Of a stretch of 64,000 nucleotides of DNA, positions 11-39,431 are shown one piece after another. The DNA comes from Candidatus Bathyarchaeota archaeon (GTDB lineage: Archaea > Thermoproteota > Bathyarchaeia > Bathyarchaeales > DTEX01), in assembly GCA_963714275.1 (NCBI GenBank), contig CAVQNT010000003.1:160001-224000 (forward strand), given 5' to 3'. The translations under genes and the position numbers were made by a program. Within the stretch, counting starts at the first letter, position 1. Every line of letters begins with the position of its first letter. A model generated the notes under the pieces. The model was not told where the DNA came from. It worked only from the letters and a program-made list of their open reading frames with translations, and ran no database searches.

Positions 11-973
11 ATGATGAAAGTTTCCGTTTGGAGCGGTAACCTTTCGGACTCCTACCTTAAATTGGTAACACATCTAGGAGCGGACTGCATTGACTTTAAC
101 CGAGGAACCGATCTTACCAGCGACAAAAAGAAGGGTTACCCAGACCTTGAGAATGTTCTAAAGATAAAGGAGAGAATCCGCTCCTTTGGGTTAGAAGTGA
201 ACCGCGTAACCTTGCCAGACATAACGGAAAAGTTCATGAAGAACCAGAAGGGCGGAGACGACGAGCTCGACAATACGTGCCGAGCTTTGAAGGCTTTTGG
301 CGAAGCTGAGGTTCCACTGGCAAGGCAACGGTTCGCAGGTGAAACCGTCGAATGGGCTTTAACCCATTATAGATCTGTGCATCGAGGTGGATATTTTTCT
401 CGTGGAGAAAGGTTCGATTCAAGCAGGCTTCAACAGGAAGCCTTAACGAAAGAAGAAACAGAAGACTGGTGGCGTCGCTTCCACCTTGTCTACGAACGCC
501 TGGTTCCAATCGCAGAAGAACATAACGTCAAACTTGCCATTCACCCGTCTGACCCGCCTTTGCCGGGTGCACCTTTAGACACTTCAGGATTCAACCGCGT
601 CATTAAGGAGTTTCCTAGCAGAGTCGTAGGCTACATTTATTGTTGTGGAACCAGAGGAGAAGCAGGCGGCTTACCATTGGTTCTGAATGAGATACGCAAC
701 TATGGCCGCGAGGGTCGCATCTTTCAAGTTCACTTCCGTAACATCAAAGGCAACTTACCCTCATCAAGCGGGTTTGAGGAGACGCTTCTCGACGACGGAA
801 ACATGAGCATGTTCAGAATCCTCCAAGCGTTAAAGGAAGCTAATTTTGACGGCTGCCTTAACCCAGACCACATTCCAACAGTTGAAGGAGACGGAAAACA
901 GGTGCACCACGGACTTGCCTACTCAGTCGGATACATCAAAGCCCAAATAGCAGCATTAGAAGCCATGAAATAA
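11..973 (+). CDS. uxuA: Mannonate dehydratase (UxuA) family protein
   Basis: Motifs HPSDPP, HFRNIKG, ETLLDDG, PDHIP and AYSVGYIKA; ATG at 11 or 14. Confidence 0.8.
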   Translation: MMKVSVWSGNLSDSYLKLVTHLGADCIDFNRGTDLTSDKKKGYPDLENVLKIKERIRSFGLEVNRVTLPDITEKFMKNQKGGDDELDNTCRALKAFGEAEVPLARQRFAGETVEWALTHYRSVHRGGYFSRGERFDSSRLQQEALTKEETEDWWRRFHLVYERLVPIAEEHNVKLAIHPSDPPLPGAPLDTSGFNRVIKEFPSRVVGYIYCCGTRGEAGGLPLVLNEIRNYGREGRIFQVHFRNIKGNLPSSSGFEETLLDDGNMSMFRILQALKEANFDGCLNPDHIPTVEGDGKQVHHGLAYSVGYIKAQIAALEAMK

Positions 974-1238: not shown

Positions 1239-2672
1239 TTATAATGACGTGAAACTGGACACGTTGTCCATGACGGTGCTGATTCTGCTTAGGCTGTCAA
1301 AGACCACGTTAAGCCGATACGTGCTTTTCAGTGTGAGCTGAATCTGCCTCATTACGAAACGGGGAGACCAAAGAAAACTTTGGTAAAAATCACGCACCAT
1401 CTCCCTCATCTCGTTAAGAGACACAGCGTTGGGATAAACGTCTGAAACGCCGACTCCTCTCTCCCAATACTTGTCTTCGTCTATGAGACCCTTCTCCTTG
1501 AACTCCTGCCAAATATTGTCACCAGGAAAAGCGCCCAAAACGTTGATTTGGGGAATGTCGAGATTCAACCCTTTCACGAAATTGAGGGTCTTTTGAATGT
1601 CCGCCTTCGTTTCGTTAGGAGCGCCAATAATGAACGAGCCAACTATGAGGTCCATTCCCGCCTTCCTCGCCTTCTTCACGGCTTCCATGGACTGCTGCAG
1701 AGTCGTCCGCTTATTGTAATAGTCAAGAACCTTCTGGATACCGCTTTCAATCCCGAAATACATCATTCGGCAACCCGCCTTTACCATCCCCCGAAACATG
1801 TCATAAGAAGACTGGTCAACCCTTCCCTCGCATATCCATTCCACGTCGATTTTTTCCTTCCTTATCCTCCGGCAAAGCTCCACCACCCTTTTACGGTTCA
1901 AAGTGAAGTTGTCGTCAACAAACATTATTTGCTTGTAACCCTCGCTGGCTAAAAGGTGAAGCTCCTCCAAAACGTTTTCGACAGACCTTGCCCTCCAGAT
2001 GCTATGGGCGATGCTGGAGCAGCAACAGAAACGGCACTTGAACATGCACCCTCGGGAAGAAAGGAAACTGGTAAACTTCTTTGGCGCCACGTTAATCCCG
2101 ACGGTCGTGTTGTGGTACTCGTTGTCCAAAAGGCTCCGTTCGGGAAAAGGTAACGAATCAACGTCCTTTATCAATGGCCTGTCCGGGTTCGAAACAACAC
2201 GATTGTTGTGTCTAAAGGTGACCCCCCAAACATCTTTGAGATTCCTTTTTTCCTTAAGACGAGTCACAAGTTCAAGGCAGGTTTGCTCGCCCTCGCCCCT
2301 AACGACAACATTCACGAAAGGGTACTTCCTGAGAATCCTTTCAGCATTAAAGGTCGCATGATGGTTCCCGAAAACAACGACGATGTCAGGATTCGCCTTT
2401 TTGGCTTCCTCCGCGATTTTAGGCGCCGTCAAACTGGAACTAACAAGCACGGACAAGCCGAGGACATCAGGATCTTCTTTTTTGACCCAATCAACAACCC
2501 TCTTAACGGAGATTTTTTCAGCCGCATGATCTAACACGGACGCCTCTATTCCCCTGCTTCTCAGCGTCGAGGCTAAATATAAAATCCCAAGGGGAGGACA
2601 CGCAGCAGTCATGGTGTTCTCGCCCTCTAGAAGAGACCCGTTAGGGCCAGGATTTACGAAAGTAACTTTCAT
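1239..2672 (-). CDS. B12-binding domain radical SAM protein (class B methyltransferase-like)
   Basis: PPLGILYLA N-terminus, SRGCMFKCRFC CxxxCxxC motif, FVDDNF, GIESG. Confidence 0.9.
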   Translation of the reverse strand: MKVTFVNPGPNGSLLEGENTMTAACPPLGILYLASTLRSRGIEASVLDHAAEKISVKRVVDWVKKEDPDVLGLSVLVSSSLTAPKIAEEAKKANPDIVVVFGNHHATFNAERILRKYPFVNVVVRGEGEQTCLELVTRLKEKRNLKDVWGVTFRHNNRVVSNPDRPLIKDVDSLPFPERSLLDNEYHNTTVGINVAPKKFTSFLSSRGCMFKCRFCCCSSIAHSIWRARSVENVLEELHLLASEGYKQIMFVDDNFTLNRKRVVELCRRIRKEKIDVEWICEGRVDQSSYDMFRGMVKAGCRMMYFGIESGIQKVLDYYNKRTTLQQSMEAVKKARKAGMDLIVGSFIIGAPNETKADIQKTLNFVKGLNLDIPQINVLGAFPGDNIWQEFKEKGLIDEDKYWERGVGVSDVYPNAVSLNEMREMVRDFYQSFLWSPRFVMRQIQLTLKSTYRLNVVFDSLSRISTVMDNVSSFTSL

Positions 2673-3060: not shown

Positions 3061-5017
3061 TTAATAGGGCAGCAACCAAGTAGACTTGCTCAGAAGGGTA
3101 ATTATTACAAGAACGGTTGAGACAACACCATCTCCAACCAAGAAGCCGATAGTGATGAACCCTTTATTTGACTCCCAGAACTCGCGACCCACCGTTTTCC
3201 CTATTATGTGCGAAACCAATGAGCCGATGAACATGGCGAGCCAAAAAGAAAATGAGGAAGGAGGTACTGCTGCAAGCATAGCAATTGCGTAATAAGGTCT
3301 ATGGAAAATAAGGTCAGAAATGAGGTAGAGACCCGTGGATATGCTGAATCCTGTCACCATGAAGTACGGTACCTGAAACTTTGCGAAACTAAGATCAAGC
3401 GTAAATTTCGGTCCGAAAAGGTTGCCTGTCCACAGCCAAGATTGCCAACGCCAGAAGTTCATGGCTTCCACCGGCCAGCCTGTAATCGTATATGTGTACG
3501 CGAATCCAGGTATTGGGTTGAGACGCCAAAAGACTGAGACGAAGATTAGGCTTCCAATAAGTCCCAGCACAATCAAAAGGAAATATACTTTAGTGTATTC
3601 TTTCACGTCCTCGTCGACCATTGAAGCCATAAGAAGCTGCTGAGTGACACCTGAACCGCCAAGAAACAGAAACATCTCCTGTGGCAAGAACCATATGTCT
3701 AATCCTCTGTATCCACTGTAATATATCATTGTTTCGCGGAGATAGGGGACGCTTCCACCAAACGTAACACCCGCTGAACGAGTCTGCAGAAGGGTTATCA
3801 CAAAGGAGATACCTAACGTAAAGACAACTGAGAGCCACAGTGGAAAACCGGGAACAAGAAGCATTGTCAAAAGAATGGCAGCTGACGACGTTGCTAAATA
3901 TATAAGAATCAGGTTTCTTCCATTAAGCCACCATTCAGTTGTTCCACCGAAGCTCCGTCCAATGCCTTTAAACGCCCTAATAACTGATTTGTACCTGATG
4001 AGAAGCGGTATCGTGGCAATGGCTAAACCCCATCCTATTGCGAAGCTGTTCCAGAAGTAAAGTGAAGACATGTTAGTTATCCACAGGACTCCTAAGTTTG
4101 GAGCCCATTTGATTTCAGCTGGCCAAAGGTTATTTATTGTAACGTAAGGGTTTCCTCCTAGGTATATTGCTGCTGACATCAATAATTGCGCAGCCGCGAG
4201 GTCCAAGGGGAAAAGGAACCCCCAAAGGTAATTCGTAGCGTCCAACGTAAATGAGAAGGAAGCCTCCTTTAAGCGAGTTTTCGATAATGGCCGTTAAATC
4301 TATTGGGTAACGTGGAACCAACGGAATCCCCAGTATTGAGGTCAACCCGTTTGATGCAAACCCGTAAAGTACTCCTCCAGTAATCGCCAGTGCAATGACC
4401 CGTATTTTGGGCATTTCTCTTTCTCCGAACGCCCTCATCGTTCTAGCATCCCACGTTGCTGCAGGAAAAGCAAGCTTTTCTTCTCGAACATATAGGCTAT
4501 AGGCCAAAAGTCCCAATGTATAATTGGCCACAGCAGACAGTAAAATGGGCACACATACGCTGGCTAAAATAGGTAATCCCCACGCTGGGTCAAAAAATGT
4601 TCGAGACAGCATGACCCTTTGGGCGTCCGCTCCTAGAGGAGAGAAGAAAGACGGAACTGCCGATTGAATCCCATAAATCCTGGCAATCTCGGAATTTGCG
4701 AAGTACTGGTTACGTAATAAATAGGCGAAATAGTAGCCAGTATTCATCAAGCCTACAGACTCAACAATCCTGATTATAAAAATTTCTTTAGAGCTAAGGG
4801 ATGCCCCCCAAAGCCTCGTTATTCCCACCCACAACAGTATAACTGTCCAGCTCATCATTCCTCCCCAAAACGGAAGCCCCCAAAGCCCATTCACAAGCCA
4901 ATTGTACACGATAGCGGGCTGTATAACAAAAATTAAGAAAACGAAGGCTAACATTGTACGCCATGTTAAGCCTTTTTGGGAACTGCCCGTTACTTTTATG
5001 CTGCTTTGCTCCTCCAT
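3061..5017 (-). CDS. OPT/YSL-superfamily-like polytopic membrane protein (~650 aa; frameshift near 4250)
   Basis: ORFs 4130..5017 and 3061..4245 overlap in different frames; many TM helices; GLTWRT N-terminus and EKLAFP motif. Confidence 0.7.
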
Positions 5018-8000
5018 GCTGCCATCGCCTTTTCAATATATTTCTTTTGATCGTCCTGCCGAAGGGCTCTCCAAATCAGGAACTGTTTACGAATTATGTC
5101 AAGTAACGCCTTGTTGGTAGTGGTCCAGATACTCTCCAATCCTTCAATTCTTTTTATTAAAATTTCAAAGCCATACCTGTCAGGCTGCTATTGGTCTACT
5201 AATGACGTTGAAGTCCTGGATCACTCCCGCGTCGAACGGCGACAACTGAAGCCTAGCACTCAGGACTTTTCTTTCGTCCTCTTGGGTCAGTTGCACTGGC
5301 TTCAAAAGCATGAATATTCCTGTTCTTTCAGTCGCAGAGGCTTCGAAAAACTCGCTGAGGAACCCTAGAACACCGATAGACTCGTCTGGTGTAGCGCTGA
5401 ATGGTAAACCTATACTCCAGAGGTCGCCTACAGGTTTGCTGCCAATTCTCCATTTTCTTAAAAGTGACGGCGTCACCATTTTTGAAGCCTTCGAAACAGG
5501 ATAGATCGAGGACAGCACAGTTGCTGCCATCATTATGCCCATCACGATGATGACGACTCCAGACGACACATTGGGTATCAAATCCTTTGGAAAAATGTGC
5601 AAGTTCGACAATAAAGATGTCACGCTAGCCCCAGTGAAGTAACCCAAGAAGCTTCCCAAGAAGGCAAGGGCCACACTTTCTGTTATAAAAATGGCTCCAA
5701 TATGGCGAGGTGACAGCCCAATTGTGCTCAACGTTCGAATCTCACGTGTTCTTTCAAAAACCGCGCTCAACATCATTGACAGCAGAGTAAGAGACGACAG
5801 AAACAAAGGAATAATCATGTTTTCTGCTCCGCTAAGCATATAGATGTCTCTTGTAGTTATTTGCTGTGCATTAGTTTCACCCTTTATTCCGTAAGACACA
5901 TCAAACTGCTGCAACGTAAGAACCATATCGAAGGCACGTTGTCCCAAATCACCCAATGTTAACGTCGTCGAGTTTGAACTGAGAGCGATTACATTGGGTT
6001 GAACATTGAAGTATTCTGTCGCAAAGTCGTAGGGAACTATGATTAATGAAGAAAGTCCTAGTGGAGAATACACACCTCCCAGACCAGATACTTGAGGGTC
6101 TGGAGGCAGAATTGCGTTTCTGTCCAAGTCTTTGGACAGGAGAGCGTTTCCTATATCTTCAAAAATAATACATCTCACGGTAACAGGAACCCCATAAATG
6201 TTAAGCTTAGTTCCATATGTGACGTTAATGCCTAAATCAATGCCCATTCTTTCAGCAAGCGTGTCCGTGATAATGATGGAATTTATCATCCCCGGTTCAA
6301 AGACGTCTCCTTGCCCAGGGACTCTTGCGCCCTCCAAAATTTTTGATTCTTCGAGCTGTCATTGCCAGCATACCTCTTACTGAAGAGGTAGTAGCGTTCC
6401 AAATTATGAACATGTTCTGCCCAGATGGATATATCCAAGCCCTAGGGTTTAATTGAAATTCAGATAATCCTTCCGAAGCAACATCCTTTATGGAAATCAG
6501 ATAGAGTTCTGATGTTGGATTGTATACGTTCGAAGCTGGTGGTATAGGTCTTGTTAGAAGCAGTCCTGTGTAAGTGGCGCTGCCTACTGATGATGTCCGC
6601 GGCTGGACCATAACTCCCATTGTTGTAAACAAAGTCATCGCTGAGACCGTTATAATGATTGTCGTTAAAGTCAATGCTGTCCGCATAGGTCTTTTCTTGA
6701 GGTTCTCAACTCCCATGGATAAAGCCGACATGATTAGACTTCCTCTTTCAATGTCAGATCGGTGAGAACCCAGAACTGATCGGCTTATTGCACTTATTGC
6801 CGTGTTAAACTCATCTAAGACTATGTAAAGCAACAGAAAAGAGAAAAGAATAACGGAGAGCCCGTCAATAAGCATCCAAACGTTTGAAGCGATTACATAA
6901 CCAGGATGAACTTGGCTAAGAGCTACGTTTGTTATAACGAAAAATACTATGATTGCTAACATCCTCTTTATTCCAGTTTCTCTGCCCAAGACCAGCTTTC
7001 CTAAGAAAACCACGAAGGCAGCGGAGAGGAAGAAGAAGAAAGTCGCCGTGTTTACGACATCGTATATTAACGCAAAGGACGAAACATAAGTGTTTGCTGC
7101 ATACAACCAGTAAGCGATGGAATACGAGTATAGTTTTCCGTTTTCACCGTTTTGGCGAGCTTCATCAGCCAACTGTTTTAAGTGATGCATCCCATCAAGA
7201 TACAGAACCATCTTAGCATTAGATGACATCTTTGACTCCAAGAAGCCGCCTCTTTGGTTCGCTAAATAATACATGTTTTCCACAGCATCAAAAATGGTTA
7301 GCACAGTGGTTTTTCTCTGAACTAGACTATACCCTTGTCCATCAGGGAACTTTTCAGAAGCGTTATTCAACACTGCAACCACTGTTCCTGATGATCTAAT
7401 GAGGATCTCCACATTCGTATCTGGTTGAGCGAAAACCATAGCTTCAGGTGTAAATTCCAACACGTCTCTCCAAACAAGGTAACTGTGAGAAACGAAGTTT
7501 AGGATATCAATACTTAGCGTTTGCGGACTTCCCATAGTCCACAGGTTTAGATAATCTATAAGCGCAATAGATGAAACATTAATAATAGGAACATAGCGGA
7601 ATCCATGCGCAGAATTATCAGAAAAACTTCTTGCCATTCTACCAGTACTCATTAGATATCCAACTCCCCCTGTTCCTGGAGTGGCTGTTGGAGGCTGCAG
7701 CTGATGACGCTGCACCAAAAAGAGTCCCTTGCCTTAATAACAGCGTACCAAAGGGGCCTGTGTCAGTGGCACATAAAACGTCCCCAGTTTCCGGGTCGAG
7801 AATATAGCCTTGAGCGTCAATGCCGCAACGAGGTCTAAGTCCTTTTATGACAACTTTGCCTTCTTCGTCTGGCTTTAGGACTACAGTGAACCCGATTCCT
7901 GGACTTAGGGATCCTGATGAAACGATTCCGCCTGAAGTTTGTACTGGTGCAACAGTGAATACTCCCGCAATCACTCCTAAGACAACTGCGCTTCTTGCGG

Positions 8001-9687
8001 ATCCAGTGCCTGCGGATGGGGTGAGTCCTGCGACGACTACGTTACCTGCTGGGTTACTGCTTGGTCCTACTGAAACAAAAAATAGTCCATTTTCGTTGGT
8101 ATACTTGTTGAAATTGTTTGTTGTCTTGTTATATGTTGCTAATTGAATTGTCACATCGACCAATCCATGGTCCGAGACGCCTGACAGGTCTGCTCTTCCA
8201 GGAGACAACTGACCAAAATTCGCAAAAAAACTGGCAGAATTATATAGGACAGGCCACAAGAAAACTACTTGTTTTTGTAAGTTTTGTTGTTGTACGTTAG
8301 CATAGGTGTCAAAAGGAGTGTATTGGTATATTCTGAAAGAATCCGTTGTGACGAAACCTAACCCTCCTCCATAACAAGTCTCAGTGAAAACTTCAGCCTC
8401 GAAATATTTTGGGAACGGTTCAAATGGAACAAATCCCACGATAAAATTTGGATAGGACCATTGTATTCCGTTAATCATGTGGGATTTTTGGTCCAACTGT
8501 TGTTCAAAGTCTGGGTAACCATCCGGTCTTACATTGAATATATCATCAAGCCAAGGAGCATAATATCGTAGGAACTGGGTAGGTCTATCATATTGGTACA
8601 TTGCCCCCGTTGCATATACTACAGTAATGTCGCTGTCACTGGCCAAGTCGAGAGAAAACATCATTTTAATTTTAGAACGCAATTCGCTGAAGTGACTGTC
8701 TATATATTCCCTGGCACCAGCTAGTCCTTGATAATGCCCTGCGAAGGCGACAAGCCAGACGGTTCTCTCGGGTCTAGACTCGGTAAGAAGCCTAGACAGT
8801 TCAAGAAGGAACGCAATACCCATTGAGTCAGTGGCACCAGGAGAAAGCTGTGGCACAATAGACCACGAGTCATAGTAAGCACCAATTATTACCACCTCAT
8901 TCCTTAAAGTCGGGTTGGTTCCTTCAATGACAGCCACAAGGTTTGATACGGTTTTTTCCTTCCAAACCATGCGGGAGTCAACCCAGATTTTCACCTCGCC
9001 TTGTTGATTTACAAGTTCTCTGAGCAGCGAAGCATTCTCTCCTCTGACATATAATCTTGGAAAATTAAGAGGAACACTGAATGTTTTTTGAACAGCTTCA
9101 ACACAACTTGTGCTATCTGGTTCTAGGAAAATCACTCCTTTAGCTCCAAAGGTAGCTGCGTTCTTCCAATACCACCTGTTATTAAAATCCATCAGAACAA
9201 AGGTTCCTTCAGGATTGAGACCGTCAAAATCCTCAGGAAGCCCTTGAGGTACATAAATTAAATTATCGCCCTCTTCGGGACTTTGATAGGGACACGGATT
9301 TATGTGATTTGGCCAAAGAGGATAAACCTGTATCTCAATTTTGCTCCCATTTGGCAACTGAACGGTTACAACTGCTTTCTCAGTGATAGGAGTCACTATG
9401 TCGAAAGATTCAGATCCCACGGTTAACCCGAGTGATTCCCAATAGTTCTTAATATAATCAGCAGCCTCGAAAAAGCCATCATACCCCGTTACACGAGAAC
9501 CAAAGCTTGTAAAAATTTGGATATGCTGAAGTACATTGTTGAAATCAAGTTCAGCGAGCCTGTCTACTCCAGTTTGCTGAATTGAGGCAGTTGACAAAGA
9601 TTGTTCTACTGTCCATGTTTGGGATGCAACAATCAAGATTAAGGTAAGAATCAACGGACATCGGAGAAGAACCTTTCGAACCATCAT
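4996..9687 (-). CDS. Giant fusion (~1560 aa): signal/TM, PA plus M28-peptidase-like domain, TM bundle, FtsX/MacB-like permease; 3 frameshifts (~7700, ~6340, ~5185)
   Basis: Joins ORFs 7639..9699, 6297..7718 and 5180..6337 plus a hand-translated tail (PDRYGFEILIKR...IRKQFLIWRAL...SKAA*). Motifs SRVTGYDG, GAYYDSWS, GATDSMG; FtsX signature FERTREIRTLSTIGLSP. Confidence 0.75.
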
Positions 9688-9786
9688 ATCACCTAACAAT
9701 TTTCCTCTCCGGATAGTTCGGTGTATTATACGACCATCGTGATGTTAATAAGACTTTTGCATTGTTGTGTTATTTTTTATTTAAAT

Positions 9787-9851
9787 GGTTAATCTTATAT
9801 ATATTTATAAATTATTATATATTTATAATTTTAAGCGGTTAATCTTATATA
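9787..9851 (+). promoter_or_regulatory. Duplicated 15-bp element GGTTAATCTTATATA in a divergent promoter region
   Basis: Exact copies at 9787-9801 and 9837-9851; each contains a TATA-like CTTATATA. Confidence 0.55.
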
Positions 9852-9896
9852 CAAAAAGAGAAGAGCTATTAAACACAAAAATAGAAGTGAAAGAAA

Positions 9897-11913
9897 ATGA
9901 CTGAAGAAGCTAAACGCGTTTTGACACCAAAATCGTGGGCAGCACTTATAGCGTTGTCTGTGGTCATGAGCTTCGTAGGTGTTCTAACATCGCCATATGG
10001 ACCTAGTTGGATGTTCTCAATGGTTCTAGGATCGTTTACAGCTCCAATTGTCGCATTGTTCATCGTGATGGTCATAGCCAAAATATCCAGCTCGTTCTCA
10101 AAATCCCTTACACCACAACTACTGGCACTAGTATACACTGTAACAGCAATGTCAGTTGTCTTCTGTTACAGCATGATTCCCTACGGTATAGTACACAACG
10201 CAGTTAATGCGCGACTGAACACGTTCGATTGGCACCCAGCTACATGGCTTGTTAAGGATAACTGGGTATTCGGTCCAACTAATCTCGCTACTGTAAATCC
10301 TATCTTGACTGGCGGAGCAGCAACACCTTGGGCTGACTGGTCACCATTCCTTGGTTGGTGGTTAGCATACACAATTTGCTGGCTAGTATTTTGGCTTGGA
10401 TGGATGGCGCTCTTAGAAGAACGATGGATTGAAGTTGAAAAACTTCCTTATCCAGCAGCTTTGACTGGCACAATGCAGATTACTATGGCAACTCAAAAAG
10501 AGAAAACTGAAGAAAGCCCAAGTTCCAAAATGTTCCTAATCGGCATCTTAATAGGAGTGATATTAGTCGTACCAATAGTCGCTCGTACACTTAGTTCAGC
10601 AGTACCTGACATCTACGGTTGGACTGCGGCTCCATACCTACCTTGGATGTTAGGAACCATCAGCCTCGGACAAATTCCTGCGGCAAGCGTTATTCCAGTA
10701 ATGGCCTTCCTACCAGTAAATCCGATGATCTACGCACTGTTCTACCTCTTCCCATTGAAGATACTGTTTTCAATGTGGGCTTTCTGCTTAGTTGGTGTAT
10801 TGATTCCAAGCCAGATTGCCTATTACGGCGGATACTACACTGCACTTGCGCAGACCGGTGACAGATTCCACGCATTCATGGATGGCGCACCATTCTTTTG
10901 GAATGATATATGGATAGGTTCCATTATAGGAATAGTTATCACATGGTTTGCCCTTAACTACTCGTACGTTGGAGGCTTGTTCAAGAAATCGGCTGAACCA
11001 GAGAAAAAGGCTGTTTCGCCATTATTAGGCTGGGCAATGGTTGGAGGCGCCACTGTAATGCTCATTGCTTTGCTCATTGTTGCAGGAACAAACCCATTAG
11101 GTAGCATTGTGATAGTGTTGACAATGTGGCTGTTATACCTGTCAATTATCAGGGTATACGGCTTCGGTGGTGTAGCTGGTACTGCTTGGGCATTCCCGAA
11201 CGACTGGACTCACTTAGGATTCCTGACAAAGTATATCTATACTCCTCCAGGATATGCTGGAAGTGCTTTGGCCTATACTCGTACTCCAGAGTTCACAACA
11301 ACAATGTGGTTGTCGAATAGATGGACAGGAGAAATAATGGCTGAGAACAACACACAATTTGGACTGGTTTTTGCTATTCCAATGTGTTACAAGGTTGCTT
11401 ATGACACAGGAACCCATCCAAAAGATGTCACAAAACTGATCCTAATATCAGGTATCCTATCAGCAGTCATAGGCTTCCCAACTGCAATATGGTTCAGCTA
11501 TACGGTCGGTGTAAACAACTGGCCAATGGGACAATTTGACGCTTGGTGGCATTGGACTTTCGATGCGCCTTGGGGAAATATTAACAGTGGTCTAGGAATC
11601 ATAGAACCAGCTTATCCTTATATGATTGCAGGTATTGTTCTGGTACTAGTATTAGGAGTCTTGAACTTCCGCTTCATCTGGTGGCCAATTGATCCCGCAG
11701 GTGTCACTCTCGGTTTAGGTGCAGCTGGAACTGGATGGCTTATGCCCGCTATAGTTGCATGGATTGCAAAAACATTGGTTCTAAGAACTGGTGGAACAAA
11801 GACTTAACGACCGAACAGTTTTGCCACTAATCATTGGACTGCTCGTAGGCTATTGGGTCATGATATTCGTCGGCGCTATGGGTGGCTTAATAAATTACTT
11901 CATTCCGAAGTAG
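9897..11913 (+). CDS. DUF6785/DUF6784-like (OPT-related) polytopic membrane protein; frameshift near 11805
   Basis: ERWIEVEKLPYP and FIWWPIDPAG motifs; removing one base extends the ORF to GGTKTYDRTVLPLIIGLLVGYW...IPK*. Confidence 0.7.
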
Positions 11914-11928
11914 TCTCCCACAACCCCC

Positions 11929-11960
11929 TTTCTTTTTTTTCTTTTTCTTTTTTTTATTTA
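11929..11960 (+). terminator. Archaeal oligo-T terminator
   Basis: Long T-tracts directly after the stop codon at 11913. Confidence 0.6.
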
Positions 11961-12120
11961 TTTCAGTGTACAATAGATTATTTTCATTTAAAAAAAAGAG
12001 TCGAAGTTTTTTCTTTCAATAAATTATCTATTTTTACCTTAGATTGTATGATTCTATATTAAAAATGAACCAATTTTTATAGTTCGTTTTTTTGTAGGTT
12101 CAACGAATGAGTTCACTTAA

Positions 12121-12498
12121 TTATTTGTTTTTTCTTCCGTGCAAATGGGACCTATTTAGGTTTTTATTATGTTTCTTTATGACTTCATCTTCAAGGTTTA
12201 TTCCCCAGACTTCACATAAATTAACAAGTCTTATGAAAATGTCGGCAAGCTCCTCAGCGAATCCTTCAACGTCATTGTCTCGGATTGCTTCAGAGGCTTC
12301 GCCTACTTCACTGTGTATCCTTAAAAGCATTGTATCAACGTCCTTTTTAACCCAAGAAAAACCCTTGGAAACTGCCCACTCAGTGACTATTTGTTGCCAG
12401 TCTTTAATGCTTCTTAAAGACCCGTTTGGAACATAGTGCACAATTTTACCTCCTACATACGGTTTGTCTCGTTTAGCAATATTTAAGACATGTCGCAA
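12121..12498 (-). CDS. MazG-like nucleotide pyrophosphohydrolase
   Basis: SEVGEASEA...EELADIF all-alpha NTP-PPase motif; true start uncertain. Confidence 0.8.
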   Translation of the reverse strand: MRHVLNIAKRDKPYVGGKIVHYVPNGSLRSIKDWQQIVTEWAVSKGFSWVKKDVDTMLLRIHSEVGEASEAIRDNDVEGFAEELADIFIRLVNLCEVWGINLEDEVIKKHNKNLNRSHLHGRKNK

Positions 12499-12592
12499 AA
12501 CCGTTTTAAATATACTTAAGCTGAAAACGAAACATCTGCAGAAATCTTAAGAATTAAGGTCAGCATAAACATATCAAAGAAGATGTGTTGGT

Positions 12593-13562
12593 GTGTACAT
12601 GTTAGACATTGTTACCTTAGGCGAAGTTTTGATACAATTAAACGCTGCTTCAAATGGTCCATTAAGGCACGTTACATACTTTGAGAAACACGCGGCGGGA
12701 GCAGAAGCAAATTTCGCGATAGGAATGACGAGACTGGGATTCAAAGCTGGCATTATATCACGGGTAAGGGACGATGAGTTCGGGAAATATATTATCAATC
12801 TTTTAAGAGGAGAGGGATTAGATATTTCAAGAATAAAATATGAAAATGAAGCCCCTAACGGCGTATATTTCATACAACGTAACTATCCAATTCCGGGAAA
12901 AAGCAGCGTATTGTATTACCGAAAAGGCTCAACTGCAAGCAAGATGTCAGTTGGTGACATAGACGCGGAATACATAAAAAATGCCAGACTTTTGCATTTG
13001 ACGGGAATAACTCCAGCCTTAAGCTCCAGCTGTAAAGAAGCATGTTTTGAAGCTCTTAAAATTGCGTCAGAAGTTGGCGTCACAATATCTGTTGACACTA
13101 ATATAAGACTAAGCTTGTGGGGCGACGAAGAAGCCCGAAAGACATTATTGCCAATGATTGAAAAGGCGAACATTGTACTCACAGAACCCCAAGACGCCGA
13201 GATTCTTTTGGGAACAAGGAACTCTGAAGACATCGCCAAGAAAATTTTACGAATGGGACCTGAAACTGTAGCCATTAAGCTGGGCGAGGAAGGAGCAATA
13301 GCATACACAAAAAGGGAGACTGCAAGAAAATCTGCTTTCAAGGTTCCGACAGAAGACGCGATTGGGGCAGGTGACGCGTTTGCAGCAGGATTCATTTCAT
13401 AGCTTGTTACGCGGTTTAAACCTAGAAGATGCATTAGAAATTGGAAACGTGGCCGGAGCCTTAGTTGTTACAGTAAAAGGCGACTTTGAGAACATGCCTT
13501 CAATCGATGACGTGAAAAAGTTTCTGGCTGCTCAAAGAAAGGAAATATCTGATCTGAGGTAA
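12593..13562 (+). CDS. kdgK: PfkB sugar kinase, KDG-kinase-like; frameshift near 13395
   Basis: AGAEANFAIG, HLTGITPALS, DTNIRLSLW and DAIGAGDAF; C-terminus lies in ORF 13362..13562. Confidence 0.75.
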
Positions 13563-13650
13563 ATTATTCAAGGTAACTTCCCTTTTTTAGGCTCACAAGC
13601 TTTTAATTTTAATTATTTATGTGACCTCCCTTTTTTGAAGAGTCAGAACG

Positions 13651-13692
13651 TTTATATATTACTAGATGGTAATAATTATTACCTAATGGTAA
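13651..13692 (+). promoter_or_regulatory. TATA box followed by two palindromic operator boxes TTAC-N6-GTAA
   Basis: TTTATATA at 13651-13658; TTACTAGATGGTAA at 13659-13672; TTACCTAATGGTAA at 13679-13692. Confidence 0.65.
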
Positions 13693-13705
13693 GGATCATT
13701 GGACT

Positions 13706-14410
13706 ATGACAACGAGTCACCAGAATCTAATCAAAAAGGCAAAGACGATTTTAATAAAAAAGGGATTCAAAGAAGATCAAATCTACGAAGAATTCGGGTT
13801 CTTGGATTATCGAATTGACGTTGTAGGGTGGAGTGCAAACAAAAAAATAGCGGTAGAATACAGATATTCTGATTCAAAAAAACTTAAAGACCTCGAAAAA
13901 TTCTTTGACGAAGTCATTTGTTTACCTACAGAGAATCCTACTCTCTCATTAACCTCTGAAACTAAGGCGCCTGAACCCTATGAAAAACCTCATCCAGAAA
14001 AACTTGTTGGAATGAGATTGTTGTTATCTAAAAACGAAAACGTTCTCATCGAAATACCACTGTCCATTAAAGATTGGTCAAGGAAACAACTTGAGGATGA
14101 GATGTCATCTTTTGAGGATCAATCTAACAGATTCTCAAAGCTTTTTGATGCCTTGTCGCATGAAACACGTTTAAGAATGATGAACAACCTCTTAGTTGAC
14201 GAGGACCAAACTGTAACTTTCGCCGAATTTATGCGCGACTTGGACCTAAACCCGAAACTTGTCTGGGAGAACACTCGGAAACTAACTGAAGGCGGATTCC
14301 TAAAGAAGACTGGTAGAGGAGAGTATAGATTCTCAGAGTTCGGAGAAACCGAGTTCATGATGATGAGCCTTGCCTTAAGACGTTTAATGGAAGCTCTTGA
14401 AGAGCTTTAG
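13706..14410 (+). CDS. ArsR-like wHTH regulator with an N-terminal PD-(D/E)XK-like domain
   Basis: RIDVVGW...IAVEY at the N-terminus; FDALSHETRLRMM...LTEGGFL wHTH. Confidence 0.7.
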   Translation: MTTSHQNLIKKAKTILIKKGFKEDQIYEEFGFLDYRIDVVGWSANKKIAVEYRYSDSKKLKDLEKFFDEVICLPTENPTLSLTSETKAPEPYEKPHPEKLVGMRLLLSKNENVLIEIPLSIKDWSRKQLEDEMSSFEDQSNRFSKLFDALSHETRLRMMNNLLVDEDQTVTFAEFMRDLDLNPKLVWENTRKLTEGGFLKKTGRGEYRFSEFGETEFMMMSLALRRLMEALEEL

Positions 14411-37215: not shown

Positions 37216-38318
37216 TCATTCCACCGAAATCTCCTTCTCCAACCCCGACTGTGGGTACTGGTAAAGCAAGACAGACTCGGGAGGAAATTTTAAGTTAACC
37301 CGAGTTCCTGTTCTCAGTTCCTGTGAAGCTGAAGAGAATGGAGTTTTTACAACAACGACTTTACCATTTTTTGTTTTGACTTCGTACCGTACCATGCTTC
37401 CCATGAAGGTCACCGCCTCGACTGATCCCTTCCAAAGCGGTTCAATTTTACGTTTTTTTTCTATGACTACGAATTCGGGTCTGATTGCTGCAACGACTTT
37501 GGCGTCTTTAGAGGACGCTTTTTCCAAACTGTAAAGAAAAGAATCATCCACATTTACTCTAGTCCCTTTATCCGTCTCCTCGGTAATATAACCTTCGAAA
37601 AAATTTGCTTCGCCAACAAAATTTGCTGTGAAAAGTTCTTTTGGATGAAGGTACAGTCTGTAAAGGTGTATCGACTTCGACTATTTTGCCCGTTTTCATA
37701 ACGACAATCTTGTCCGCGACTGCCATAGCTTCCTCTTGGTCGTGAGTGACGTGGATTGCTGTGAGGTCAAGGTCCTTAATCATCTTCTTGATTTCATGTC
37801 TTAACAATTTTCTGACCTTGATGTCTAACGAACCGAGGGGTTCGTCAAGTAGCAACAGGAGGGAACCTGACGCAAGGGCTCGTGCGATCGCTGTTTTTTG
37901 TTGTGCGCCTCCGCTTAGCACGTTTGGGTGGTCGTTGACTCTGTCTCCGAGAACCATCATGTTTAACATTTCTTTGACAAGGATCCTAATTTTGGACGGG
38001 CTCCACCCTTTAACAAAAGGTCCGTATGAAACGTTTTCATAGACGTTCATGTGGGGGAAAAGAGCGATGTCTTGGAAGACATATCCGATTCCTCGGTCTT
38101 GAATTGGAACATCGTTCATAAGTTTGCTGTCGATGTAGATTTCTCCCTCGGTTGGCTGTATAATGCCTGAAATGCACTTTATCAGTGTGGTCTTGCCGCA
38201 TCCGCTTGGACCAATTATGCACACATATTCTTTGTCTTCGATTGCCAGATTCACGTTTTCCACTGCTGTTATGTCTCTATACTTTTTTGTTATGTTCACC
38301 AGTCTGAACCGAGGGCAT
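37216..38318 (-). CDS. ABC transporter ATPase with a TOBE domain; indels near 38305 and 37660
   Basis: GPSGCGKT, LSGGAQQ, LDEP and HVTHDQEEA; TOBE domain in ORF 37216..37551. Confidence 0.85.
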
Positions 38319-39431
38319 CTATATAGCCTCCAGCTCCCTGAAAAGACCCGCCTGAGGATATGGGTATGTCTTTATGTTCTCTGGTTGAAGCCTAATGTAG
38401 ACTTTTTCGTTGTCTGAAAACGTCTTTCTCTGTTGGTTTACTGGAATTTTCGAGTTAACTACATCACCATTTTTTAGCAAAATTTCGAACACTGTTGAGT
38501 TTCCTAAGAAACTAGCAGATTGAATAGTTCCTGGAAAGAAATTGATTTCCTGTTCCTCGCCAATCCGCTTAACTATTTTCGTTAGTTCCTCCCTTACTGC
38601 CAGAACCACTTTTTCTCCGGGTGAGTAATCAATTTCTCTGACACGTACGATGAAACGGTTGCGGAGTGTATCCGAGCTCCCTGTTGGTCTCTCTCTACGA
38701 CGAATCCTTCTAGAAAGTTTGCGCCGCCGACGAAGTTGGCTACAAAAATGCTTTGGGGTTCATTGTAAACTTTGGAGGGGACGTTTACTTGCTGGATTTT
38801 GCCTTGTCGTAGAACCGCGATTCTGTCTCCTACAATCATGGCTTCTTCTTGGTCATGTGTCACATGGATGGCAGTGAACCCTCTTTCCTTTACAAGGTCC
38901 CTAATTTTGTATCGAAGTTCAACCCTGATGCGGGCGTCCAAGGCTCCTAAAGGTTCGTCCAGTAAAAGCAGGTTGGCGTTTGAGGCAAGTCCTCTTGCCA
39001 GCGCGAGACGTTGCTGCATGCCGCCACTTAGCTCATTTGGTTGTGAATTTGCCCTTCCAGCCAACCTCGTCATCTCCAACATTTTCATCGAAATTCTGTA
39101 GGCTTCTTCTTTGTTAAGACCTTTTGAGGTTGGTCCGAAAGCAACATTTTGGAGGGCACTTAGATGCGGGAAAAGGGCATAGTTCTGTGGAACAAAAGCG
39201 GTGTTTCGCTCTTGAGGTGGAACATTATTGGCAAGTTCATTGTCGATGAATATTTCGCCTTCGTCGGGTTTAATTATTCCGGCAATAAGCTTAAGTAAAG
39301 TCGTTTTTCCACTGCCAGTTGGACCTAAAACGCAAAGGTATTCGCCGTCTTCCACTTCTAGGTTTAGACTTGTTAATTGCAGAAATTTTCCCGAACCTCT
39401 TTGTAACGTTGATTAGACGAACCGACGGCAT
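38319..39431 (-). CDS. Second ABC transporter ATPase with a TOBE domain; indels near 39365 and ~38660
   Basis: GPTGSGKT, LSGGMQQR and HVTHDQEEA. Confidence 0.85.

Follow-up and report, generated by a model that had tools for sequence, protein, structure and literature searches.

A widespread membrane module of Bathyarchaeia and Armatimonadota that combines a giant M28-like/FtsX protein with OPT-fold partners

We analysed a stretch of 64,000 nucleotides from a Candidatus Bathyarchaeota archaeon (hereafter the window; positions 160001-224000 of contig C3 of the source genome G000, which comprises 2.64 Mb in 10 contigs) and found that its positions 3061-11913 carry a real and co-conserved three-gene membrane module. 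The module consists of a gene for a giant protein of ~1560 residues, with a PA/M28-like head and an FtsX-type membrane base, an overlapping gene for an OPT-fold protein of ~650 residues, and a divergently transcribed DUF6785/DUF6784 gene. It is widespread and uncharacterised, it represents a new arrangement of known kinds of transporter, and its three proteins are likely to act together.

A three-gene module conserved in archaea and bacteria

An initial annotation, made from the sequence of the window, had proposed that one protein of ~1560 residues emerges once several frameshifts are repaired, that its gene overlaps the start of an OPT-like gene of ~650 residues, and that a second, DUF6785-like gene related to OPT proteins is divergent from both. 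Comparison with the congeneric genome G002 bore out this gene structure (Table 1). The intact G002 orthologue of the giant (1563 residues) matched the window over residues 1-1562 in four tblastn high-scoring segment pairs with 86-92% identity. The two pieces of the OPT-fold gene matched a G002 protein of 651 residues, and the ATG of this gene overlaps the 3' end of the giant gene by 22 nt, as it does in G002. The divergent gene matched a protein of 671 residues (tblastn), with a change of frame before the last 38 residues, and it was recognised by the Pfam models DUF6785 (PF20581; E 1.6e-17, 63.7 bits against a cut-off of 25) and DUF6784 (PF20580; E 6e-9, 36.4 bits against a cut-off of 26.4).

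Following the suggestion of the initial annotation, we determined the co-occurrence and neighbourhood of the three families, and the genes proved to be co-conserved. A scan of species-representative genomes (one genome per species) with a 10-sequence alignment returned at least 575 stretches that encode a relative of the giant. The 70 best loci were analysed, 30 of them archaeal (Bathyarchaeia, Thermofilaceae and Thermoproteales) and 40 bacterial (mostly Armatimonadota, with Latescibacterota and Gemmatimonadaceae as well). Where at least 2.2 kb of flank was available, an OPT-like gene lay directly downstream of the giant at all 28 archaeal loci and at 31 of the 34 bacterial ones. Counting DUF6785 genes required at least 7 kb on both sides, and such a gene was present at 12 of the 13 archaeal loci that qualified; it was also present at two bacterial loci, both of which lack the OPT-like downstream partner. 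The OPT-like partner family as a whole comprised 1186 clusters at 50% identity (E ≤0.001).

The same association was seen at the level of genomes. G000 encodes exactly two giants, two OPT-like proteins and two DUF6785 proteins, arranged in two cassettes that are separated by 10 kb on contig C3. The relatives that we searched carry from 2 to 16 or more paralogous cassettes per genome. In a set of 41 relatives, 22 of the 23 genomes that encode a giant also yielded DUF6785, versus two of the 18 that do not (these two have a completeness of 80% and 82%). When loci were compared in pairs, paralogous cassettes among them, the identities of the three genes were correlated, with r values of 0.93-0.95. 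Because linked genes share ancestry, this correlation shows that cassettes duplicate and diverge as units; it is no evidence of contact between the proteins.

We next considered the origin of the frame breaks that interrupt all three genes. In a 9-kb DNA alignment with the reference relatives G002 and G004, in which the region is 86.4% identical to G002, every break corresponded to one extra base in the window relative to both relatives, and there were neither deletions nor in-frame stops. All six odd-length indels relative to the two intact orthologues were single extra bases in the window, the sixth being intergenic, and all of the extra bases fall outside long homopolymers. The relatives encode the giant in a single open frame of 1470-1600 residues, and all G000 copies are fragmented. 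Five breaks fall within the 8.7 kb of coding sequence of the module, a number that could be taken to indicate true pseudogenes, with biological frameshifts accumulating at a decaying locus. This explanation is very improbable, as the changes are exclusively single-base insertions, as amino-acid identity to the orthologues is 84-92% on either side of each break, and as housekeeping-type genes in the flanks and ATPase genes throughout the genome are broken at equal density. Compared with the same two relatives, the flanking genes contain five more breaks in ~10 kb (one each in genes for CbiZ, an MFS transporter and a PfkB kinase, and two in the gene for a CBM4_9 protein), and several ABC ATPase genes elsewhere in G000 are split as well. 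Since the orthologues lack the extra bases and breaks are just as frequent in the flanking genes, we read the breaks, on this sequence comparison, as very probably being assembly errors. Programmed frameshifting or a non-standard code was rejected, given that the orthologues have no such insertions and that breaks also occur in unrelated neighbours. The second G000 cassette is likewise split into several frames, with genes for a glycoside hydrolase family 38 (GH38) alpha-mannosidase and a sulfatase-like protein in its flanks. Parts of the stretch are contained in 20 sequencing runs, the best share being 0.47.

Architecture of the giant and its OPT-fold partners

The layout of the giant was derived from hydropathy and from the secondary structure of an AlphaFold2 model of the G002 orthologue (Table 1). 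The C-terminal part of the protein, as modelled, is a type VII ABC (MacB/LolCE-like) permease base, with FtsX transmembrane (TM) helices TM2-4 following TM1 and an extracytoplasmic domain inserted between TM1 and TM2, the arrangement by which this permease type is recognised. The giant of the window matched the Pfam FtsX model with an E value of 7.2e-18, and orthologues and paralogues matched MacB_PCD in addition. The model of residues 860-1563 had a mean predicted local distance difference test (pLDDT) value of 81.6 and a predicted TM-score (pTM) of 0.56. It matched 5xu1, MacB and LolCDE in Foldseek (E 1e-10 to 1e-7), and in VIA comparisons it matched YtrF (Z 14.3 over 341 residues, root-mean-square deviation (rmsd) 17.7) and the MacB periplasmic domain (Z 13.1 over 188 residues, rmsd 3.5); FtsX was also among the Foldseek and VIA matches. 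The cytoplasmic coupling helix between TM2 and TM3 is conserved: E1312, R1313, G1324 and P1327 were invariant in 26 sequences of ~25% identity, and E453, R454, E457 and I458 were at least 90% conserved in a set of 62 sequences. Its motif is kept without change in archaeal and bacterial giants.

The cytosolic tail that follows the permease unit contains the invariant residues W1521, R1533, W1539 and R1540, and it ends in IRKQFLIWR, which is the most conserved peptide of the giant family and is present in the window. According to VIA this tail is not an ATPase fold. Its best fold matches were helix-grip or KA1-like, with Z values of 7-8.6 that lie in a commonly encountered range (the best, 1vjh, had Z 8.6 and rmsd 2.9 over 112 residues). 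For the distal ectodomain (residues 380-870), a search of the ESM Atlas returned a single Latescibacterota cluster, at 0.91.

The head of the giant matched the Pfam Peptidase_M28 model with an E value of 3.2e-17 (63.3 bits against a cut-off of 21.3), over profile positions 1-116 of 193 only. In phmmer searches it matched the aminopeptidase 2ek8 (E 1.6e-10; query residues 52-358 against chain residues 14-308), which we take to carry a PA domain within the aligned span. Further phmmer matches were 6hc6, 3iib and 1amp, and weak ones were to the transferrin receptor, itself an inactive M28 fold, and to a NAALADase-like protein. The Pfam PA model gave no match in the giant at E 0.01, and a weak match to ZNRF_3_ecto was obtained (E 0.004). 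Relative to 2ek8, the first zinc-ligand His is replaced by Tyr, the bridging Asp is retained, and the Glu-Glu pair has become His-Tyr; the remaining half of the M28 domain, where the last two ligands would lie, could not be aligned. Among 75 full-length relatives, none has the Glu-Glu pair, 68 have His at this position, followed in 63 of these by Tyr, Trp or Phe, and only nine retain the first His ligand. Because the site is remodelled and yet conserved, the head is probably not a canonical aminopeptidase, and its degenerate M28 site would be compatible with a binding role over a hydrolytic one. The proposal of a surface capture domain in the initial annotation is supported to this extent, namely that the head lacks the canonical catalytic residues and would be suited to binding.

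Both partner proteins belong to one OPT-fold superfamily, as the initial annotation had supposed. The AlphaFold2 model of the downstream protein (G002 orthologue; pLDDT 87, pTM 0.88) had as its sole Foldseek matches at E ≤0.001 the barley transporter YS1 (7wst and 7wsr; E 1e-10, TM-score 0.62-0.70, 15-16% identity). The downstream family is homologous over its whole length to the DUF6785/DUF6784 family (hhalign probability 99.9, E 1e-30, 595 columns), and the downstream protein itself reached the DUF6784 model only below threshold (21.1 bits). Neither of the two OPT-like proteins of the window matched the Pfam OPT model (PF03169), and PDB profile searches with the two families gave chance-level matches only. 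Paralogues came closer to the OPT model, with E values of 7e-9 and 1.2e-5: one of the downstream family matched it over its C-terminal 85 residues (E 7e-9; 35.3 bits, cut-off 25.8), and a DUF6785 paralogue scored 24.6 bits over its full length. The term OPT-like is therefore correct for the fold, and membership of the curated OPT family is borderline.

Possible substrate, candidate motor and alternative readings

The genes beside the two G000 cassettes include two GH38 alpha-mannosidase genes, a UxuA-like gene, a PfkB kinase gene and genes for a CBM4_9 protein and a sulfatase-like protein. At 17 other archaeal loci we scanned 112 of the 185 listed flanking open reading frames, and six of these loci have a gene for a glycoside hydrolase or phosphorylase (GH4 twice, GH130 three times, GH38, GH9, GHL6 and a GxGYxYP protein), and other flanking genes encode sugar isomerases (fucose isomerase), kinases, mutases (PMM) and two TrmB sugar regulators. 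No peptidase family was found among these 112 proteins. The expectation of the initial annotation that nearby sugar genes point to oligosaccharide or glycopeptide substrates is thus upheld, in that the neighbours are repeatedly related to glycans and never are peptidases. Gene content of this kind favours glycan-derived substrates, often mannose-containing, and makes the import of glycan fragments by the module a tentative possibility.

The initial annotation had also stated that no ABC ATPase accompanies the module, and this holds in cis for archaea and fails for Armatimonadota. Within the window, the ABC ATPase domains closest to the module (37835-38260 and 38948-39376, minus strand) are ~26 kb away from it, and no cognate LolD/MacB-type ATPase is fused to the permease or sits beside it at the archaeal loci. 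Among the bacterial loci with 7 kb or more on the downstream side, which was the flank needed for counting ATPases, 23 of 28 (Armatimonadota relatives) have an ATPase gene 4-5 kb downstream on the same strand, together with a gene for a small FtsX protein without an ectodomain (mini-FtsX). In Chthonomonas calidirosea the order is giant, OPT-like gene, two genes of unknown function, PqqD-like gene, mini-FtsX (211 residues) and LolD/MacB-type ATPase, and the TM1-TM2 loop of this mini-FtsX spans only some 10-30 residues. A candidate pair exists elsewhere in G000, where close homologues of the Chthonomonas ATPase (65% identical) and mini-FtsX (50%) lie convergently side by side on contig C4. An ATPase flanks the mini-FtsX at six of six loci examined in relatives, and one archaeal locus (L026), at which no ATPase was detected, has a mini-FtsX at a distance of 1.7 kb from the cassette. 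Mini-FtsX gave one strong match each in 19 of the 23 giant-bearing relatives, versus three of the 18 others; of these three, two have DUF6785 fragments and the third has only FtsX proteins of ~1000 residues.

The FtsX proteins of G000 fall into different situations with respect to ATPases. Each of its five small FtsX genes has an ATPase domain within ~3 kb, directly adjacent for four of them, and no ATPase domain is near the two giants or near four FtsX proteins of ~1000 residues. The latter belong to a second ATPase-less class (~1000-1130 residues; Table 1), members of which adjoin the cassette at six of the 30 archaeal loci. The mini-FtsX is attractive as a partner of an ATPase-less FtsX protein that does bear an ectodomain, because an ectodomain-less FtsX has nothing to move on its own. 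A predicted complex of the C-terminal half of the giant with mini-FtsX scored 0.43 (best control 0.00), with at least 93% of contacts agreeing between runs and a partner pLDDT of at least 66, which lends weak support to such a pairing, type VII ABC permeases being dimers of FtsX-type units. Of 157 solved complexes, 116 attained the pass mark of this score, as did two of 215 mismatches; passes at ≤0.60 comprised 18 of the 157 and both of the mismatches.

These observations on gene structure, folds, co-conservation, the degenerate M28 site and the bacterial synteny with an ATPase pair led us to a model in which we infer a physical complex, a direction of transport, a substrate and the use of an ATPase in trans. 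The giant would be the outward-facing subunit, with a probably non-catalytic PA/M28-like head and further ectodomain mounted on a type VII ABC mechanotransmission base, and the translationally coupled OPT-fold protein together with its DUF6785 paralogue would form the route across the membrane. The head would capture an oligomer outside the cell, most likely one that originates from mannose-rich glycans or glycopeptides, and the MacB-like base would then change conformation and pass the oligomer to the OPT-fold permeases for import. A single-copy, unlinked mini-FtsX with its LolD-type ATPase would drive the base in trans, such that giant, mini-FtsX and ATPase may form a LolCDE-like asymmetric assembly shared by the several giant paralogues of the genome. 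A glycan-uptake module with an outward giant, OPT-fold permeases and a motor in trans is the likeliest reading of the data, held at slightly less than an even chance; that an ATPase drives the module in trans at all seems to us evenly balanced. The more specific picture of a hybrid primary/secondary uptake machine of a so far undescribed kind, in which one shared ectodomain-less type VII ABC motor mechanically drives many substrate-specific giants, each coupled to an OPT-fold pair of its own, is improbable as it stands.

Several points weigh against the glycan-uptake model. No ABC ATPase was found within 10 kb at any of the 21 archaeal loci whose downstream flank measured at least 7 kb, nor in the flanks of the Latescibacterota and Gemmatimonadaceae loci, and no mini-FtsX match was obtained in four giant-bearing relatives (G008, G013, G016 and G023) that are 90-96% complete. 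The distribution of mini-FtsX follows three related families and could be produced by phylogeny alone. An unrelated-looking single-copy protein of 335 residues, p335, which occurs in 25 of the 41 relatives, has an almost identical distribution, one that matches the clade as a whole, and phyletic co-occurrence in our sample is therefore confounded by ancestry. In Armatimonadota, three genes, including that of the PqqD-like chaperone, separate the module from the ATPase pair, which may thus belong to a separate peptide-export operon. The complex prediction may reflect memory of solved LolC-LolE-type complexes, and its score is a weak one; according to the tool, a pass of this kind is wrong more often than right unless the prior is strong. 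We found no physical fusion of a giant with an OPT-like protein, and a search for longer proteins with the downstream protein was empty, which is weak evidence (the longest among the best 150 of the 1186 OPT-like representatives has 1083 residues). The link to glycans rests on gene neighbourhood, 11 of the 17 scanned loci have no glycoside hydrolase or phosphorylase, and to our knowledge the OPT relatives characterised so far import peptides or metal chelates and not sugars.

The absence of an ATPase from the archaeal, Latescibacterota and Gemmatimonadaceae loci, and the lack of mini-FtsX in four relatives, would fit import that is driven by protons and independent of an ATPase, with the base serving as a passive scaffold or anchor, the tail taking the place of a nucleotide-binding domain, and the two OPT-fold proteins performing all of the transport, along the lines of the non-canonical import complex with an OPT-like heteromeric channel that the initial annotation had proposed. 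OPT proteins are secondary transporters, and the strongly conserved tail, with its helix-grip/KA1-like and non-ATPase fold, would accord with this. We nevertheless consider it unlikely, since the coupling-helix motif, which is known to dock the ATPase, is invariant in the giants, every solved relative of the base works with an ATPase, and the conserved ATPase pair is linked to the bacterial modules and present in G000; the fold assignment of the tail, moreover, has Z values within the common range.

A different function altogether would be that of an envelope or export machine, in which the type VII ABC base does mechanical work at the outer face, for instance to extract or present a lipid-linked or peptide product or to mature surface glycoproteins, with the OPT-fold proteins as exporters or flippases and, in Armatimonadota, a tie to a PqqD-dependent modified peptide. 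MacB, LolCDE, FtsEX, HrtBA and BceAB, which act outward or at the outer leaflet and are not known as importers, supply the top fold matches of the base. The PqqD-like chaperone and the two unknown proteins lie between module and ATPase pair in Chthonomonas, and in G000 a PqqD-like protein is encoded together with p335, the homologue of one of these unknown proteins, and with a GT2 glycosyltransferase. In addition, a family of surface-anchored proteins of ~480 residues (signal peptide, YTYYGVVP motif, C-terminal TM anchor, weak IgGFc_binding matches) occurs in one to five copies beside the cassettes at 9 of 27 archaeal loci, not including the cassette of the window. Against this, the 2 to 16 or more cassettes per genome with co-diverging partners resemble substrate-specific uptake sets more than a housekeeping function of the envelope, the neighbours are catabolic glycan enzymes and sugar regulators, and known OPT proteins are importers, so that an export function appears to be rather unlikely.

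Two further neighbours of the cassettes were recorded. A B12-binding radical SAM gene (window 1239-2672, minus strand) lies directly 3' of the OPT-like gene and keeps this position in G002 and G004, and an IS200-type transposase gene and a Cas12f/TnpB-like gene adjoin the cassette in one Bathyarchaeota genome (L031 4637-6188).

Table 1. Positions of the features of the module, of its neighbours and of related genes. Coordinates refer to the window unless a residue range, a contig of G000 or a locus (L) is given.
Feature	Position	Strand	Remarks
Giant gene, ~1560 residues when read through	4996-9699, stop included	-	Four reading-frame pieces
Giant piece 1: signal anchor and PA/M28-like region	7639-9699	-	Open reading frame of 686 residues; Pfam Peptidase_M28 3.2e-17
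Giant piece 2: distal ectodomain, 3-TM bundle with invariant HPG motif, elbow helix, MacB TM1	6297-7718	-	
Giant piece 3: MacB-like periplasmic core domain, FtsX TM2-4, coupling-helix motif, start of cytosolic tail	5180-6337	-	Pfam FtsX 7.2e-18
Giant piece 4: last 63 residues, including IRKQFLIWR	4996-5187	-	Stop codon 4996-4998
OPT-fold permease gene, ~650 residues	3061-5017	-	Two pieces, 4130-5017 and 3061-4293
Divergent DUF6785/DUF6784 gene, ~671 residues	9897-11913	+	Two pieces; Pfam, tblastn
Intergenic region between giant and DUF6785 gene	9700-9896		Divergent; holds one extra base near 9718
Extra base, giant frameshift 1	~7694 (approximate)		DNA alignment with G002 and G004
Extra base, giant frameshift 2	~6353 (approximate)		DNA alignment with G002 and G004
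Extra base, giant frameshift 3	~5185 (approximate)		DNA alignment with G002 and G004
Extra base, OPT-fold gene	~4264 (approximate)		DNA alignment with G002 and G004
Extra base, DUF6785 gene	~11802 (approximate)		DNA alignment with G002 and G004
PfkB kinase	12593-13562		One frame break
CBM4_9 protein, 915 residues	15298-18025		Two frame breaks
Giant, N-terminal signal anchor	Residues 7-25		
Giant, ectodomain	Up to ~residue 870		
Giant, three TM helices	Residues ~878-958		Invariant His-Pro-Gly at outer face
Giant, elbow helix, then TM1	TM1 residues 1006-1024		
Giant, extracytoplasmic domain	Between TM1 and TM2		~265 residues
Giant, three TM helices (FtsX TM2-4)	Residues 1292-1395		
Giant, cytosolic alpha/beta tail	C-terminus		~165 residues, ends IRKQFLIWR
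Second cassette (DUF6785, giant, OPT-like)	C3:145216-153875 = L019 ~5200-13900	One strand	Just upstream of the window
CbiZ and MFS transporter	C3:157787-159827		One frame break each
Mini-FtsX, convergent with LolD-type ATPase	C4:51577-53065 = L090 2581-4000		Mini-FtsX frameshifted near its end
p335 (homologue of Chthonomonas intervening gene), GT2 glycosyltransferase and PqqD-like protein	C7:67347-69858 = L097 4348-6858		p335 has 335 residues
ATPase-less FtsX class, ~1000-1130 residues (CarboxypepD_reg, MacB_PCD, FtsX)	C2:593327-596729, C4:107318-109918, C5:44643-47697, C1:20500-23196		
Same FtsX class at other loci	L024 16557-19751, L018 13699-16722		
Surface-anchored family, ~480 residues, examples	L023 2711-7273, L025 7681-12128, L015 3715-8177; C3:109711-111201		At least 14 copies in G000, the last position being an example
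Chthonomonas calidirosea module	L088		Gene order given in the text

Significance and comparison with known systems

We found no paper on DUF6785/DUF6784 or on the combination of a giant FtsX/M28 protein with OPT proteins. In the part of one study that deals with another archaeal group, M28F is listed among the extracellular peptidases and the module is not mentioned (PMC9123169). The giants carry source labels such as 'M28 family peptidase', 'FtsX-like permease' and 'antimicrobial peptide ABC permease'. The first and the last of these will probably lead metabolic reconstructions astray, since the peptidase site is degenerate and the gene context is one of glycans. If our model is true, the coupling of a type VII ABC base with OPT-fold secondary transporters would represent a novel combination of two transporter classes. 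If the more specific picture of a shared motor is true as well, the module would be the archaeal and Armatimonadota counterpart of nutrient capture by receptors with a shared motor, and a main route for glycan fragments in sediment Bathyarchaeia. Bathyarchaeia are among the most abundant sediment archaea, and several of the relatives carry many copies of the module, with up to ~10 matches to the giant or to DUF6785 in one genome. It is also found in Chthonomonas calidirosea, which we take to be in culture, and this cultured carrier makes the module experimentally testable.

Among known systems, the closest in plan are the type VII ABC proteins (MacB, LolCDE, FtsEX, YtrEF, HrtBA, YbbAP and BceAB), with which the last ~580 residues of the giant share the elbow helix, TM1, a Porter/Sabre-like periplasmic core and TM2-4 with an ER..EIG coupling helix. 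G000 also encodes a LolD-type ATPase with a second FtsX-type protein, and the suggested asymmetric pair resembles LolC/LolE. Unlike these systems, the archaeal module has no fused or adjacent ATPase, the giant carries ~850 extra ectodomain residues and three TM helices before the permease unit and a cytosolic tail of ~165 residues after it, it is encoded with relatives of OPT-fold secondary transporters, and its putative FtsX partner has no ectodomain.

The likeness to the OPT/Yellow-Stripe-like transporters (TC 2.A.67; HvYS1, 7wsr/7wst) consists of the full-length fold match of the downstream protein. The proteins of the window differ from them in having 15-16% identity and in falling below the Pfam OPT model, in being paired, diverged paralogues that are tied to a giant FtsX protein, and in a neighbourhood of glycan rather than peptide or metal metabolism. 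Likewise, the giant resembles the M28 aminopeptidases (2ek8 and YwaD, 6hc6) in its PA-like region and the first half of the M28 domain, with the E value of 1.6e-10 to 2ek8 as the measure of this likeness, whereas its Glu-Glu pair is replaced by His and an aromatic residue, its first His ligand is mostly Tyr, and its domain is tethered to a polytopic membrane base.

Precedents for uptake with a shared motor are MsiK, which serves several sugar ABC importers, and TonB-ExbBD, which serves many outer-membrane receptors. The components of the present module come from other families, and the contact between motor and giant is putative; what it has in common with these systems is one single-copy candidate motor per genome set against 2 to more than 10 substrate-facing paralogues.

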